Source: Escherichia coli (GTDB taxonomy: Bacteria > Pseudomonadota > Gammaproteobacteria > Enterobacterales > Enterobacteriaceae). Taken from it: 64,000 bases of DNA. Position numbers and translations under genes: made by a program. Positions within the stretch are counted from its first letter, which is position 1, and each line of letters begins with the position of its first letter. Under the pieces are notes generated by a model, which had not been told where the DNA came from, did no database searches, and was given only the letters and a program-made list of their open reading frames with translations. The stretch lies in the NCBI RefSeq assembly GCF_003334315.1, contig NZ_QOWR01000025.1, one strand, 5' to 3'. Of the stretch, positions 1 to 48,818 are shown piece by piece.

Positions 1-63
1 TTTTTCGTCTTGCGACGTTAAGAATCCGTATCTTCGAGTGCCCACACAGATTGTCTGATAAAT

Positions 64-75
64 TGTTAAAGAGCA
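64..75 (-). promoter_or_regulatory. boxA antitermination element in rRNA operon leader
   Basis: Minus strand of 61-80 reads gcaactgctctttaacaatt, containing the boxA core GCTCTTTAACAA; the flanking minus-strand sequence matches the 16S upstream leader, so the window starts inside an rrn leader transcribed leftward out of the window. Confidence 0.8.
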
Positions 76-106
76 GTTGCGACGCGGCTTTCAGCTCACT
101 GTCGCG

Positions 107-150
107 AGGTGGCGTATATTACGCTTTCCTCTTTCAGAGTCAACCCTGAA
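107..150 (-). promoter_or_regulatory. rrnH: rRNA operon P2 promoter (rrnH-like)
   Basis: Minus strand has -35 TTGACT (complement of 138-143) and -10 TAATAT (complement of 116-121) with about 16 bp spacing and a GC-rich discriminator; position matches rrn P2 downstream of P1. Confidence 0.75.
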
Positions 151-216
151 TTTCAGGATTTTTCTCTTCAACCGAACCGGCTGTTTGTGTGAAGTGATTC
201 ACATCCGCCGTGTCGA

Positions 217-280
217 TGGAGGCGCATTATAGGGAGTCGGCTCAGGAAGACAAGCGGAAAAATGCATTTTTATTTCAACC
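217..280 (-). promoter_or_regulatory. rrnH: rRNA operon P1 promoter with AT-rich UP element
   Basis: Minus strand reads cttgtc (complement of 249-254) - 16 bp - TATAAT (complement of 226-231) followed by GCGCC discriminator; an AT-rich tract at 255-275 lies immediately upstream, as expected for an UP element. Confidence 0.8.
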
Positions 281-293
281 GCTCATCTTTTAA

Positions 294-869
294 TCATTGC
301 TCCGGTTTTTGCTGCTTTTTTATCGCTTGCGGCAGGTCTGCCAGGCTATTTAACACCCAATCTGCCGCGTTTTCTGCTTCAGGTGTAATAGGTTTACCCG
401 TACGCACCAGCACTTTTGTTCCCACGTTCGCCGCAACCGCTGCCTGCATATCTTCTAATTTATCGCCCACCATATAAGAAGCGGCCATATCAATATGCAA
501 ATAATCGCGTGCTGACAAAAGCATCCCCGGATGTGGTTTGCGGCAATCGCAGACCTGGCGAAACTCTTCAACACTACCCTGCGGATGATGCGGGCAATAA
601 TAGATACCATCCAGATCGACATCTCGGTCCGCCAGCGACCAGTCCATCCACTCGGTCAGCGTTTCAAACTGTGCTTCGGTAAATTTACCGCGAGCAATGC
701 CAGACTGGTTGGTTACTACCACCAGCGCAAAGCCCATTTTTTTTAGCTCGCGCATAGCGTCAATAACACCGTCGATAAATTCAAAGTTGTCGATCTCATG
801 GACATAGCCGTGATCGACATTAATGGTGCCATCACGGTCAAGAAAAATTGCGGGTACGCTCTTCGCCAC
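294..869 (-). CDS. gmhB: D,D-heptose 1,7-bisphosphate phosphatase (HAD family)
   Basis: 191-aa ORF with the HAD motif FLDRDGTIN near the N-terminus; length and sequence match GmhB. Confidence 0.95.
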
Positions 870-950
870 CTTTTATAGCTCCTTAATAAGGCATGTGACG
901 CTAGTATCGCATGTTTCGACCTGCAAGAAAGTGCTCTTCGCATAAACCTG

Positions 951-982
951 ATTGATTTAGACGTCTGGATGCCTTAACATCC
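951..982 (+). promoter_or_regulatory. MetJ operator (tandem met boxes) upstream of metN
   Basis: Perfect met-box octamer AGACGTCT at 959-966 flanked by degenerate octamers (ggatgcct, taacatcc), about 75-100 bp upstream of the metN start. Confidence 0.55.
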
Positions 983-1056
983 ATTTCATTGACGGCGTTG
1001 CCCGTTTCAGGCATTCGAGATGCCACGACTAACTTAATGACGATAATAAATAATCA

Positions 1057-2088
1057 ATGATAAAACTTTCGAATATCACCAAAGTGTTCCACCAGGGCAC
1101 CCGCACCATCCAGGCGTTGAACAACGTCAGCCTGCATGTGCCAGCTGGACAAATTTATGGCGTTATCGGTGCCTCAGGCGCGGGTAAGAGTACGCTTATA
1201 CGTTGTGTAAACCTGCTGGAGCGCCCAACCGAGGGTAGCGTGCTGGTCGATGGCCAGGAACTGACCACGCTGTCAGAATCCGAGTTGACCAAAGCTCGCC
1301 GCCAGATTGGTATGATTTTCCAGCATTTTAACCTGCTCTCTTCGCGTACTGTTTTTGGCAACGTGGCTCTGCCGCTGGAGCTGGACAACACACCGAAAGA
1401 CGAGATCAAACGTCGCGTGACGGAATTGCTGTCATTGGTTGGTCTTGGTGATAAGCATGATAGCTATCCGTCGAACCTTTCCGGTGGGCAGAAACAGCGC
1501 GTGGCAATTGCCCGTGCGTTAGCCAGCAATCCCAAAGTATTGCTGTGTGATGAAGCCACCAGCGCGCTGGACCCGGCAACGACACGTTCTATTCTCGAAC
1601 TGCTGAAAGACATCAACCGCCGTCTGGGTTTGACGATTCTGTTGATCACTCACGAAATGGACGTTGTGAAGCGCATTTGTGATTGCGTGGCGGTCATCAG
1701 CAATGGCGAACTGATCGAGCAGGACACGGTAAGTGAAGTGTTCTCGCATCCGAAAACGCCGCTGGCGCAGAAATTTATTCAGTCGACCCTGCATCTGGAT
1801 ATCCCGGAAGATTACCAGGAACGTCTGCAAGCGGAGCCATTTACTGACTGCGTGCCGATGCTGCGTCTGGAATTTACCGGCCAATCGGTCGATGCCCCAC
1901 TGCTTTCTGAAACCGCGCGTCGTTTCAACGTCAACAACAACATTATTAGCGCGCAGATGGATTACGCCGGTGGCGTTAAGTTCGGCATCATGCTGACTGA
2001 AATGCACGGCACACAACAAGATACGCAAGCCGCCATTGCCTGGCTGCAGGAACACCATGTAAAAGTAGAGGTACTGGGTTATGTCTGA
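1057..2088 (+). CDS. metN: methionine ABC transporter ATP-binding protein
   Basis: 343-aa ORF with Walker [13 protein letters not shown] signature LSGGQKQR and a C-terminal regulatory domain; overlaps metI by 8 bp. Confidence 0.95.
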
Positions 2089-6697: not shown

Positions 6698-7522
6698 ATG
6701 GATAAACCAAAGGCGTACTGCCGCCTGTTTCTCCCCAGCTTTCTTTTACTTTCGGCTTGTACCGTTGATATCAGCCAGCCAGACCCATCAGCCACAGCAG
6801 TAGATGCCGAGGCAAAAACATGGGCTGTCAAATTCCAGCATCAAAGCTCTTTCACCGAACAATCAATAAAAGAAATAACGGCACCTGATCTCAAACCCGG
6901 CGATTTGCTGTTCTCCTCAAGCCTTGGGGTAACCTCATTTGGAATCCGCGTCTTCAGCACTTCCTCTGTGAGTCACGTTGCAATCTTTCTGGGTGATAAT
7001 AACGTTGCAGAAGCGACAGGCGCTGGCGTCCAGATCGTTTCCCTTAAAAAAGCGATGAAGCATAGTGATAAGCTTTTCGTCTTACGAGTCCCGGATCTTA
7101 CCCCGCAACAAGCCACAGATATCACCGCGTTTGCCAATAAAATCAAAGATAGCGGTTATAACTATCGCGGCATTGTCGAATTTATTCCCTTTATGGTGAC
7201 TCGCCAGATGTGCTCACTGAATCCGTTCTCCGAGGATTTTCGCCAACAGTGCGTCAGCGGCCTGGCGAAAGCGCAGTTAAGCAGTGTGGGCGAAGGAGAC
7301 AAAAAGTCGTGGTTTTGTTCGGAATTTGTCACGGATGCCTTTGCCAAAGCCGGGCATCCACTTACACTGGCGCAATCGGGCTGGATTAGCCCTGCCGATC
7401 TGATGCATATGCGTATTGGTGATGTCTCTGCGTTTAAGCCAGAAACGCAGTTACAGTATGTTGGGCACCTGAAGCCTGGGATTTATATCAAGGCGGGTCG
7501 CTTTGTTGGTTTGACCCGGTGA
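6698..7522 (+). CDS. yaeF: putative lipoprotein YaeF (NlpC/P60-like)
   Basis: 274 aa from the internal Met (MDKPKAY...) with lipobox LLSAC; the upstream extension in the ORF track overlaps the proS terminator and is unlikely to be translated. Confidence 0.8.
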   Translation: MDKPKAYCRLFLPSFLLLSACTVDISQPDPSATAVDAEAKTWAVKFQHQSSFTEQSIKEITAPDLKPGDLLFSSSLGVTSFGIRVFSTSSVSHVAIFLGDNNVAEATGAGVQIVSLKKAMKHSDKLFVLRVPDLTPQQATDITAFANKIKDSGYNYRGIVEFIPFMVTRQMCSLNPFSEDFRQQCVSGLAKAQLSSVGEGDKKSWFCSEFVTDAFAKAGHPLTLAQSGWISPADLMHMRIGDVSAFKPETQLQYVGHLKPGIYIKAGRFVGLTR

Positions 7523-7527
7523 TAAAG

Positions 7528-7650
<123 letters not shown>

Positions 7651-8445: not shown

Positions 8446-8868
8446 TTATTCCCGACCGCTGCGCACTTTGCCGCGCATCGCCTTCACGCTTGATTTTTGT
8501 GCTTTCGATGCCAGCCTGCGCTCTTTCGATGCACGGGTGGGCCGCGTGGGTCGTCGGGCTTTTTTTTCTGTTGTTAATTCTTTAATCATAGCCACCAGCC
8601 GGGCCAGAGCTGCTTCGCGGTTCAGTTCCTGACTGCGGTATTCCTGTGCCTTAATGACAATCACGCCATCACTGCTGATCAAATGATGGCTGGCGGCGAG
8701 CAGACGCTCTTTGTAATACTCTGGCAGGCTGGACGCCCGAATGTCAAAACGCAGATGAATAGCCGTTGAGGTCTTATTAACATGCTGCCCGCCCGCGCCC
8801 TGCGCACGAATGGCGGTGATCTCAAGCTCACCATCGGGAATAGCAACATGTCGGGAAATCACAATCAT
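8446..8868 (-). CDS. arfB: peptidyl-tRNA hydrolase ArfB (ribosome rescue factor)
   Basis: 140-aa ORF with a GGQ motif (AGGQHVNKT) and a basic C-terminal tail. Confidence 0.93.
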
Positions 8869-41392: not shown

Positions 41393-42817
41393 TTACTGCA
41401 TTAACAGGTAGATGGTGCTGTCGCCGCGCTGAATGTTGAGTGCCAGCACAGACGGTTTGCTGTCGAGAACTTTACGCAGTTCAGCGATGTTTTTCACTGC
41501 CTGCTGGTTCGCGCCAATAATCACATCACCTTTCTTCAGGCCGATCTGCGCAGCCGGAGTGCCCGTTTTCACGTTGTTCACTACCACGCCCTGATCTTTG
41601 CCTTTGTTGCTCATCTCAGCGCCTTCAATGCCGTTGAAGATGGAGCTGGAATCAACCTGATTCTGGCTGCTCTGCTGCAGTTCCAGGTTCACGTTAACCT
41701 GCTTACCGTCGCGCAGTAAGCCCAGGGTCAGTTTGCTGCCTACCGGCATAGTACCCACCTGAGCACGCAGTGCGGCAAAGCTGCTGATCGGCTTACCGTT
41801 CAGTGAGGTGATCACATCACCCGCTTTAATGCCCGCTTTTGCAGCGGAGGAATTAGGCAGAACCTGGCTTACGAAAGCACCGCGCTGGGCGTCAACTTTC
41901 ATCGCTTTCGCCAGTTCGGAGTTCAGCTCAGTCCCCATAATACCCAGCTCACCGCGTTTCACCTGGCCGTATTCCACCATCTGCGAGGTCAGGTTTTTCA
42001 CCATGTTACTCGGGATAGCAAAACCGATACCGATGTTGCCGCCGTCCGGTGCGAGGATCGCGGTGTTGATACCGATCAGTTCGCCGTTCAGGTTAACCAG
42101 CGCACCACCGGAGTTACCACGGTTGATCGCTGCATCGGTCTGGATGAAGTTTTCGTAGTTTTCGGCATTCAGGCCGCTACGCCCCAGCGCAGAGACAATC
42201 CCGGAAGTTACCGTCTCGCCCAGACCAAACGGGTTACCAATCGCTACGGTGTAATCACCCACGCGCAGTGCATCAGAATCCGCCATCTTAATTGCGGTCA
42301 GGTTTTTCGGGTTCTGGATTTGGATCAGCGCGATATCAGAGCGCGGATCTTTGCCAACCATCTTCGCGTCGAACTTACGGCCATCGCTCAGTTGAACTTT
42401 AATGACCGTCGCGTTATCAACAACGTGGTTGTTGGTGACGACATAGCCTTTATCGGCATCAATGATGACGCCGGAACCCAGCGCCATGAATTTCTGTTGC
42501 TGGCCGCCACCATTACCGCCCTGGCCACCCTGGCAGAACGGAGAGCTCTGGAACGGAGAACCTTCCTGGCAGAACGGAGAATCATCACCGAAGAACTGCT
42601 GGAAATTACGCGGCATACGCGGCGTATTAACGGTTGTGCTACCTTCTACGTTAATGCTGACCACTGAAGGCATCACCTTTTCGAGCATCGGTGCAAGGCT
42701 TGGCATCTGCTGGGCTGTCGTTGCTGAAGAAGTCTCAGCCGCCGTTGCAGAGAGCGGAGATAACGCCAAACCTAAACTCAGAGCCAGTGCACTCAGTGCT
42801 AATGTGGTTTTTTTCAT
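41393..42817 (-). CDS. degP: periplasmic serine endoprotease/chaperone DegP (HtrA)
   Basis: 474-aa ORF with signal peptide, trypsin-like catalytic domain (GNSGG) and two PDZ domains. Confidence 0.97.
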   Translation of the reverse strand: MKKTTLALSALALSLGLALSPLSATAAETSSATTAQQMPSLAPMLEKVMPSVVSINVEGSTTVNTPRMPRNFQQFFGDDSPFCQEGSPFQSSPFCQGGQGGNGGGQQQKFMALGSGVIIDADKGYVVTNNHVVDNATVIKVQLSDGRKFDAKMVGKDPRSDIALIQIQNPKNLTAIKMADSDALRVGDYTVAIGNPFGLGETVTSGIVSALGRSGLNAENYENFIQTDAAINRGNSGGALVNLNGELIGINTAILAPDGGNIGIGFAIPSNMVKNLTSQMVEYGQVKRGELGIMGTELNSELAKAMKVDAQRGAFVSQVLPNSSAAKAGIKAGDVITSLNGKPISSFAALRAQVGTMPVGSKLTLGLLRDGKQVNVNLELQQSSQNQVDSSSIFNGIEGAEMSNKGKDQGVVVNNVKTGTPAAQIGLKKGDVIIGANQQAVKNIAELRKVLDSKPSVLALNIQRGDSTIYLLMQ

Positions 42818-42859
42818 GTATTTCAGTCTCGATTAACAGATAACGCAAAATTGCTGTGT

Positions 42860-47091: not shown

Positions 47092-47172
47092 ATTTTGCTC
47101 CAAACGACATCGGCAATTGGGCAAATTATAACCCAATAATAATCGCCATTATCTAATACCCTGGTATTTCGT

Positions 47173-48612
<1,440 letters not shown>

Positions 48613-48818
48613 TCATACAAATAAGATGACGGCATTTTACTCGCACGTTCCATGAAAATCCTTTGCAAAGCGTAATGTTTCAAATGCACAAAACTTTTAT
48701 ACTCTAAGAAATCAGGATTGCACCAGTACAAGCAGCCTGATGTTTGACGAGTATTTAACTTGTTATGAATAACATAGAATAGCAGCCATTCACTTTTTCT
48801 ACGAATCAGGAACCCTCC

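Follow-up and report, generated by a model that had tools for sequence, protein, structure and literature searches.

An Escherichia coli sequence that opens in what is almost certainly the rrnH leader, with tandem promoters and gmhB on the same strand

What occupies the sequence between coordinate 1 of the window, that is, the whole 64,000-nt stretch of Escherichia coli DNA analyzed here, and the 3' end of gmhB, and what lies beyond the edge? An original prediction had the window open inside the leader of an rRNA operon, with the operon itself beyond coordinate 1, and proposed a comparison with rrn upstream regions as a check. Aligning the window with the sequence upstream of each of the seven 16S genes of K-12, we found that every base of window 1..296 is the same as in K-12 rrnH. 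The K-12 MG1655 counterpart lies upstream of rrsH (b0201), at about 223,406-223,701 of NC_000913.3, and shares with the window P1, P2, boxB, boxA, boxC, helix hA, the UP tract and the Fis-type site at -71, as well as the upstream gene gmhB and the same strand relationship to it. Taken together, our results make it almost certain that window 1-296, minus strand, is the rrnH control region of E. coli together with the initial 217 nt of its 5' leader.

The feature is real and was correctly recognized; it is also ordinary and already fully known. Few bacterial control elements have been studied as thoroughly as the rrn promoters P1 and P2, boxA antitermination and the 16S leader-trailer helix; this copy, identical to K-12 rrnH, has its value in annotation and little as discovery. 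For annotation, the window is now known to be reverse-complemented relative to K-12 and to start 70 nt upstream of rrsH, a reason is given for the sequence being cut at coordinate 1, and the strand relation with gmhB is set right. All 5426 complete E. coli genomes with which the region was compared contain a match to it, with 7 places in the median genome, the number to be expected of a leader repeated in seven operons. The gmhB-P1 junction, counted where one place covers at least 80% of it, is found in one piece in 5420 of the 5426. Over positions 150-420, the best identity among complete RefSeq genomes is 99.6%, and none reaches 100%. A tRNA scan of the window returned no tRNA.

Transcripts from P1 and P2 would pass boxB, boxA and boxC and leave the window at its left edge. 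A window position p corresponds to leader position -(p+69), and the leader features are the following.

Positions 79..105, minus strand: boxB-type hairpin GCGACAGUGAGCUGAAAGCCGCGUCGC (GCGAC...GUCGC), from the predicted RNA fold
Positions 63..75, minus strand: boxA antitermination signal TGCTCTTTAACAA, an exact match at leader positions -144..-132
Positions 41..50, minus strand: boxC TCTGTGTGGG, an exact match
Positions 15..62, minus strand: leader strand of the 16S leader-trailer helix (RNase III stem), which contains boxC
Positions 44..20 (leader -113..-89): critical helix segment
Positions 6..17 (leader -86..-75), minus strand: leader helix hA, CGUC-GCAA-GACG, a hairpin in the RNA fold

The prediction of a boxA antiterminator on the minus strand is borne out, since the signal is exact at 75..63 and invariant in the seven K-12 leaders. 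As RNA it reads UGCUCUUUAACAA, also exact and downstream of P2, and its U at position 72 corresponds to -141. The last 75 nt, from boxA to the window edge, are invariant across all seven K-12 rrn leaders. After P2 the signals follow one another 5' to 3' as boxB, boxA and boxC, which is the order of rrn antitermination signals, and the leader folds at -69.6 kcal/mol (z = -3.98). These positions can be set beside the leader-trailer helix described by Warner, Bundschuh and Fredrick in 2023 (PMC10250234). There, boxC is given as UCUGUGUGGG, which is found exactly at window 50..41, and boxB stands before boxA just after P2, as it does in the window. U-141, hA at -86..-75 and the critical segment at -113..-89, as given there, all agree with the window positions. 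The boxA-boxC spacing is 12 nt in the window, measured from its own 13-nt boxA, whereas the paper gives 18 or 19 nt, with boxA boundaries that may differ. The trailer, hB and h0 of the described system are outside the window, which has the leader strand alone; the window edge falls between hA and hB.

The other arm of the helix is seen in a complete operon, in which 6839-6886 (equal to window 62..15) pairs with 8511-8558 over 48 nt at 75% complementarity. The pairing arms are 1624 nt apart and enclose 16S, the trailer arm coming directly after the 16S 3' end. According to PMC10250234 and PMC6614801, boxA in the nascent RNA recruits NusB/NusE, which with NusA, NusG, S4 and SuhB form the rRNA antitermination complex, and boxC belongs to the leader strand of a leader-trailer helix that is essential for active 30S subunits. 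By its identity with characterized leaders, the boxA described here would recruit NusB/NusE along with the remaining factors of that complex. Later, the boxC region would pair with the trailer after 16S, forming a leader-trailer helix to be cut by RNase III.

The window ends at leader position -70, and 16S is seen in relatives only. It had been anticipated about 70 bp past the edge, and it was found 70 nt past it in the closest genome and in K-12, which are relatives and not the window's own genome. The match to the closest genome, NZ_AP021892.1 (99.9% identity), stops at locus position 6900, and the annotated 16S rRNA of that genome begins at 6970; tRNA-Ile, tRNA-Ala, 23S, 5S, tRNA-Asp and dkgB come after it. 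Because the layout is 16S-Ile-Ala-23S-5S-Asp and then dkgB, the operon is identified as rrnH. K-12 has the same 69-nt gap between the equivalent of the window edge and rrsH. The placement of an rRNA operon beyond coordinate 1 agrees with the 16S-23S-5S operon of NZ_AP021892.1 and the 16S of K-12. Judging from these relatives, 16S in the window's own genome would begin exactly 70 nt beyond coordinate 1, and the sequence expected leftward of the edge is TGAATACCAAGTCTCAAGAGTGAACACGTAATTCATTAC(A/G)AAGTTTAATTCTTTGAGC(A/G)TCAAACTTTT, then AAATTGAAGAGTTTGATCATGGCTCAG at 16S.

It is very unlikely that the window instead carries an orphan leader, one whose rRNA genes the source genome has lost beyond coordinate 1 by deletion or rearrangement. 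Against this, the window has its strand of the leader-trailer helix intact, and 16S follows in both E. coli genomes examined downstream as well as in Mixta, where gmhB, P1, 16S, two tRNAs, 23S and 5S are contiguous. Rearrangements of the locus do occur, since in 6 of the 5426 genomes no single place covers 80% or more of the junction, and an end at -70 with 16S inferred from relatives would be compatible with one of them; but the junction is kept in the other 5420. Moreover, the last 75 nt are the same in all seven leaders, so that recombination between operons would still leave 16S next to them.

Rfam, searched over 1-1100 at a permissive threshold, matched a single family, RF02849 Ysr197 (window 300..53, minus strand, whole model, E = 3e-37), and no dedicated rRNA-leader family. 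Ysr197 (Yersinia sRNA 197) came out of RNA-seq in Y. pseudotuberculosis as a candidate sRNA (PMC4376681), which raises the question of whether the sequence is an independent small RNA of this type and not an rRNA leader. We find this barely credible. The score of 145.1 bits is below the gathering score of 167, the minus strand is without a terminator-like site in 1..1100, and Ysr197 is strongly repressed in stationary phase (PMC4376681), as expected of an rrn P1 leader fragment. The Ysr197 consensus itself holds the P1 -10 and discriminator, the P2 hexamers and boxA, suggesting that Ysr197 and the rrn control region of Yersinia are one and the same. Thus, while Ysr197 is filed in Rfam as an sRNA gene, the window sequence is an rrn promoter and leader that in relatives runs on into 16S, and the family appears to describe an rrn control region and not an independent sRNA.

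Returning to the rrnH reading, the promoters and their upstream region were located as follows.

Positions 294..869, minus strand: gmhB coding sequence, from the list of open reading frames (191 aa, GTG start, TGA stop 296..294)
Positions 281..295, minus strand: candidate Fis-type site I, GATTAAAAGATGAGC, consensus score 10.5, centered at -71 from the probable P1 start
Positions 255..276 (-59..-38 of P1), minus strand: UP-element-like A/T tract GAAATAAAAATGCATTTTTCCG, 16/22 A/T
Positions 226..253, minus strand: rrnH P1 core, with -35 TTGTCT (253..248), a 16-nt spacer and -10 TATAAT (231..226); 10/12 consensus positions
Positions 225..218, minus strand: G+C-rich P1 discriminator GCGCCTCC, aligned with rrnB P1 TATAATGCGCCACC-A
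Positions 144..216, minus strand: P1-P2 spacer, the 5' part of the P1 transcript, with hairpins at about 203..190 in the RNA fold and the palindrome CCTGAAATTCAGG at 157..145
Positions 116..143, minus strand: rrnH P2 core, with -35 TTGACT (143..138), a 16-nt spacer and -10 TAATAT (121..116); 9/12 consensus positions

The palindrome was scored as a plus-strand terminator-like site in a mechanical scan. Judging by the alignment with rrnB, P1 probably starts at A217; P2 probably starts near 109..108. That P1 and P2 lie on the minus strand and point out of the window, as originally proposed, follows from the hexamers at 253..226 and 143..116 and from the rrnH identity. In each of the seven K-12 operons, P1 and P2 align with these hexamer pairs, and the window has the tandem arrangement of sigma-70-type promoters, on one strand and about 110-120 nt apart, that precedes 16S in rrn operons. 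The sequence also has the 16-nt spacer and the G+C-rich discriminator after the -10 that mark an rrn P1. The consensus scan alone found 5 promoter-like sites, compared with 2.0 +/- 1.5 in shuffles. Because this is not significant by itself, the promoter scan is not our main evidence, and homology is decisive. The seven K-12 operons agree in the P1 -10 with the start of the discriminator (TATAATGCGCC), in the P2 -35 and in the greater part of the P2 -10. The P1 -35 is variable (TTGTCT, TTGTCA, TTGTGC, TTGCGG), and the window's type of P1-P2 spacer is common to rrnE and partly to rrnD, not to rrnA, rrnB, rrnC or rrnG.

The experimentally characterized model is rrnB. Its P1 and P2 resemble those of the window in the -10 TATAAT, the G+C-rich discriminator, the 16-nt spacer, the A/T-rich UP tract, the Fis-type site centered at -71 and the tandem P2 with TTGACT, and its leader has boxB-boxA-boxC and is identical from boxA on. 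Like the window, rrnB has a co-directional upstream gene, murI. The two differ in the P1 -35 (TTGTCT in the window, TTGTCA in rrnB), the discriminator (GCGCCTCC and GCGCCACC, respectively) and the P2 -10 (TAATAT and TATTAT). The P1-P2 spacer of the window is of another sequence type than that of rrnB and about 8-10 nt shorter.

At rrn operons, P1 is strong and growth-rate-dependent and P2 weak and basal; Fis and the UP element activate, H-NS represses, and initiating NTP and ppGpp exert control (PMC5179076). Among the operons, rrnH is reported to be relatively the most up-regulated under nutrient limitation (PMC6312700). By this model, sigma-70 RNA polymerase would initiate at the two tandem promoters. 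P1, from its probable start at A217, would be the strong, growth-rate-regulated promoter, presumably boosted by alpha subunits on the A/T-rich UP element and by Fis at -71, and restrained by ppGpp and by sensing of the initiating NTP through the G+C-rich discriminator. P2 would be the weaker, basal promoter, with its predicted start near 108.

Upstream of the P1 core, the sequence has an A/T-rich tract where an rrn P1 should carry its UP element, about -40 to -60, and a Fis-type site near -71, also expected there. The UP-like tract aligns with the A/T tract upstream of rrnB P1, and 16/22 A/T is reached by just 1.8% of window 22-mers. For Fis, 15-mers were scored against the consensus GNtYAaWWWtTRaNC; as a control, the scan recovered the rrnB P1 sites at their textbook positions of -71, -102 and -143. 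The score of 10.5 at 281..295 is reached by only 3 of the 63,986 window 15-mers, and the same scan finds a -71 Fis-type site in six of the seven rrn operons of K-12. Hirvonen et al. (2001) reportedly mapped and footprinted the UP elements and Fis sites of all seven rrn P1 promoters. Our results agree with the original prediction that the P1 activation region reaches gmhB, with a UP-like tract and a -71 Fis-type site present, but not that it ends at the gmhB stop at 294: the Fis-type site (295..281) overlaps the TGA by 2 nt, its first two bases being the last two of the stop codon.

Any additional Fis sites at rrnB-like positions would fall within gmhB, and the sequence by itself gives them no support. 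For rrnB Fis sites II and III, the 15-mer consensus scan showed no clear counterparts in the window. Candidates further upstream, at -134 and -173 inside gmhB, score 8.5, which 0.6% of 15-mers reach. These and the other upstream Fis-type 15-mers in gmhB were rejected as evidence, their scores being at chance level, reached by 0.6-2.4% of window 15-mers.

To follow variation within the species, we aligned the junctions of ten diverse E. coli strains. All ten agree in the Fis-I block, in each of the four hexamers, in the discriminator and in boxA and boxC, and Fis-I is also conserved at Enterobacteriaceae junctions. From -60 to -40 the UP tract does not vary either, while -38, shortly before the -35, can be G or A. 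Changes are seen in the final two codons of gmhB, at two positions a little downstream of Fis-I, at one before the -35, at three in the P1 spacer, and in the boxB loop. This pattern of variation, which spares the elements, supports their function. The boxB loop of E. coli rrnH has two alleles, one of the rrnH/D type and one of the rrnE type, which points to gene conversion among the operons. Compared with the nine other aligned strains, the window has a unique base only at position 301, inside gmhB, which gives GmhB Ala190Glu.

A genome-wide pattern scan, which finds only loci with the exact P1 core, was used beyond E. coli; the 120 loci listed are a sample and not a frequency. Among these matches, the 24-nt core TATAATGCGCNTCCATCGACACGG is exact in many Enterobacterales, Aeromonas, Salinivibrio, Vibrio harveyi and a Shewanella MAG. 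Most of the matches listed are at contig ends, as expected because the core is adjacent to rRNA repeats. gmhB lies directly upstream of P1 on the same strand at 32 of the 120 listed loci and on the opposite strand at 0; the 32 are from Enterobacterales and one Aeromonas. The commonest distance from the gmhB stop to TATAAT among the matches listed is 72 nt. The reading of the promoter-like hexamers as chance consensus matches in an ordinary intergenic region, which the nonsignificant scan taken alone would allow, is refuted by the exact K-12 rrnH identity and the conservation across seven paralogous operons, by the strain variation that spares the elements, and by the P1 core exactly conserved in many genera among the matches listed.

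The relation of the rrnH promoters to gmhB is the one point on which the original prediction has to be reversed. The open reading frame 869..294 is annotated in all matching genomes as gmhB (D-glycero-beta-D-manno-heptose 1,7-bisphosphate 7-phosphatase). It had been called convergent with the promoters; gmhB, P1 and P2 are all on the minus strand, in tandem, so that gmhB is transcribed toward and into the promoters. Just 40 nt separate the gmhB stop codon from the P1 -35. No terminator-like site was found on the minus strand within 1..1100, the four terminator-like sites there all being on the plus strand. Because none lies between, gmhB transcription would cross the Fis site, the UP element and P1 and enter the leader. 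The tandem gene-P1 arrangement is not peculiar to rrnH, because co-directional upstream genes are also found at other K-12 rrn operons (murI-rrnB, hemG-rrnA and clpB-rrnG).

This layout raises the possibility that gmhB and rrnH P1 are functionally coupled, by interference or by priming of P1 by an LPS-core biosynthesis gene. We consider such coupling unlikely. If it existed, boxA could turn gmhB-derived transcription into an antiterminated complex. A search of the literature for rrnH together with gmhB, or for rrnH with yaeD, found no papers. The coupling idea cites the two bases that the gmhB TGA shares with the -71 Fis-type site. It also cites an E. coli-specific extension of gmhB by three codons, the last two codons being a hotspot of substitution within the species.

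In most other Enterobacterales genera among the matches listed, GmhB ends at residue 188, three codons earlier. E. coli has lost that stop, with the reading frame extended to the TGA inside the conserved Fis-I block. The least ordinary point of the locus is this terminator-less end of gmhB overlapping the P1 activating region, together with the three-codon extension in E. coli; the chance that overlap and extension have a regulatory consequence is low. Over positions 1-570 the window differs from K-12 at four bases, 300, 301, 363 and 384, all of them in the gmhB tail. The penultimate gmhB codon is GAG (Glu) in the window and GCA (Ala) in K-12, so that GmhB ends in ...KPEQ in place of the ...KPAQ of K-12, and the remaining two changes are synonymous.

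The first 300 nt of the window contain a match to a family catalogued in Rfam as a Yersinia small RNA, and the elements compared here lie within or overlap it:
53-300, minus strand: match to Ysr197 (Yersinia sRNA 197, Rfam RF02849)
79-105, minus strand: boxB hairpin
145-157: perfect palindrome CCTGAAATTCAGG, directly upstream of the P2 -35 element
294-302, minus strand: C-terminal codons of gmhB

The Ysr197 consensus contains the rrn P1 -10 element with its discriminator, the P2 hexamers and boxA. What RF02849 describes appears to be the control region and leader of the rRNA operon, not a separate sRNA. The stationary-phase repression reported for Ysr197 fits the behavior of rrn P1. An exact 24-nt P1 core, running from the -10 element through the first transcribed bases, reaches Aeromonas, Salinivibrio, Vibrio harveyi and a Shewanella MAG among the matches listed; the loci behind these distant matches are L023, L060, L066, L078, L086, L102-L104 and L128. 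On an Aeromonas sanarellii contig (L087), a gmhB homologue with 63% identity lies directly upstream of the P1 core on the same strand.

The junction between gmhB and the control region was compared across genera and within E. coli. In most Enterobacterales represented among the cross-genus P1-core loci (L018-L135), GmhB ends after residue 188 (...KKQQK-stop). That stop is lost in E. coli, and the gmhB frame runs two to three codons further, so that it enters the Fis-I block, which is conserved. Substitutions within the species cluster in these terminal codons, a hotspot reading GAGCAA, GCACAA, GCGCAA, GCATAA, GTGTAA or GCGTGA, and GmhB is 190 or 191 amino acids long depending on them. Glu190 of the window GmhB (base 301) is absent from the nine E. 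coli strains aligned, and no exact match to window positions 150-420 was found among RefSeq complete genomes. 15-mers that score as high against the Fis consensus as the rrnH -71 site (at least 10.5) occur at only two other places in the window, 47119-47133 and 48600-48614.

Comparison of boxB with E. coli junction loci L009, L012, L014 and L016 revealed two rrnH loop alleles among E. coli strains. The window carries the rrnH/D-type loop, GTGAGCTGAAAGCCGCG; the second, GTGCGCTAAAGCGCG, matches the rrnE loop of K-12 exactly. This pattern suggests gene conversion between rrn operons. The palindrome CCTGAAATTCAGG is common to rrnD, rrnE and rrnH and missing in rrnA, rrnB, rrnC and rrnG. A run of T follows the palindrome when the plus strand is read, giving it a terminator-like score; it could act as a stop for antisense transcription arriving from downstream.

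Upstream of gmhB, a perfect met box lies between divergent genes:
870-1056: gmhB-metN intergenic region

The met box AGACGTCT (e.g., 959-966) is followed by weaker tandem 8-mers, GGATGCCT and TAACATCC, an arrangement we take to be consistent with putative MetJ control of metNIQ.

No tRNA genes were found in the 64-kb window. Outside the Ysr197 region, four Rfam matches exceed the gathering scores of their families:
7567-7643, minus strand: naRNA4 (REP-derived nucleoid-associated RNA)
32907-33016, minus strand: CssrA
33855-33941, minus strand: t44
42812-42857, minus strand: HtrA 5' UTR thermometer

Among the complete E. coli genomes, a few rrn P1/leader matches (5-10 places) fall on plasmid-classed records, for example NZ_OZ547001.1 (90889-90976). 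One plasmid-classed record with such a match is 266 kb long, and the match falls on no annotated feature.
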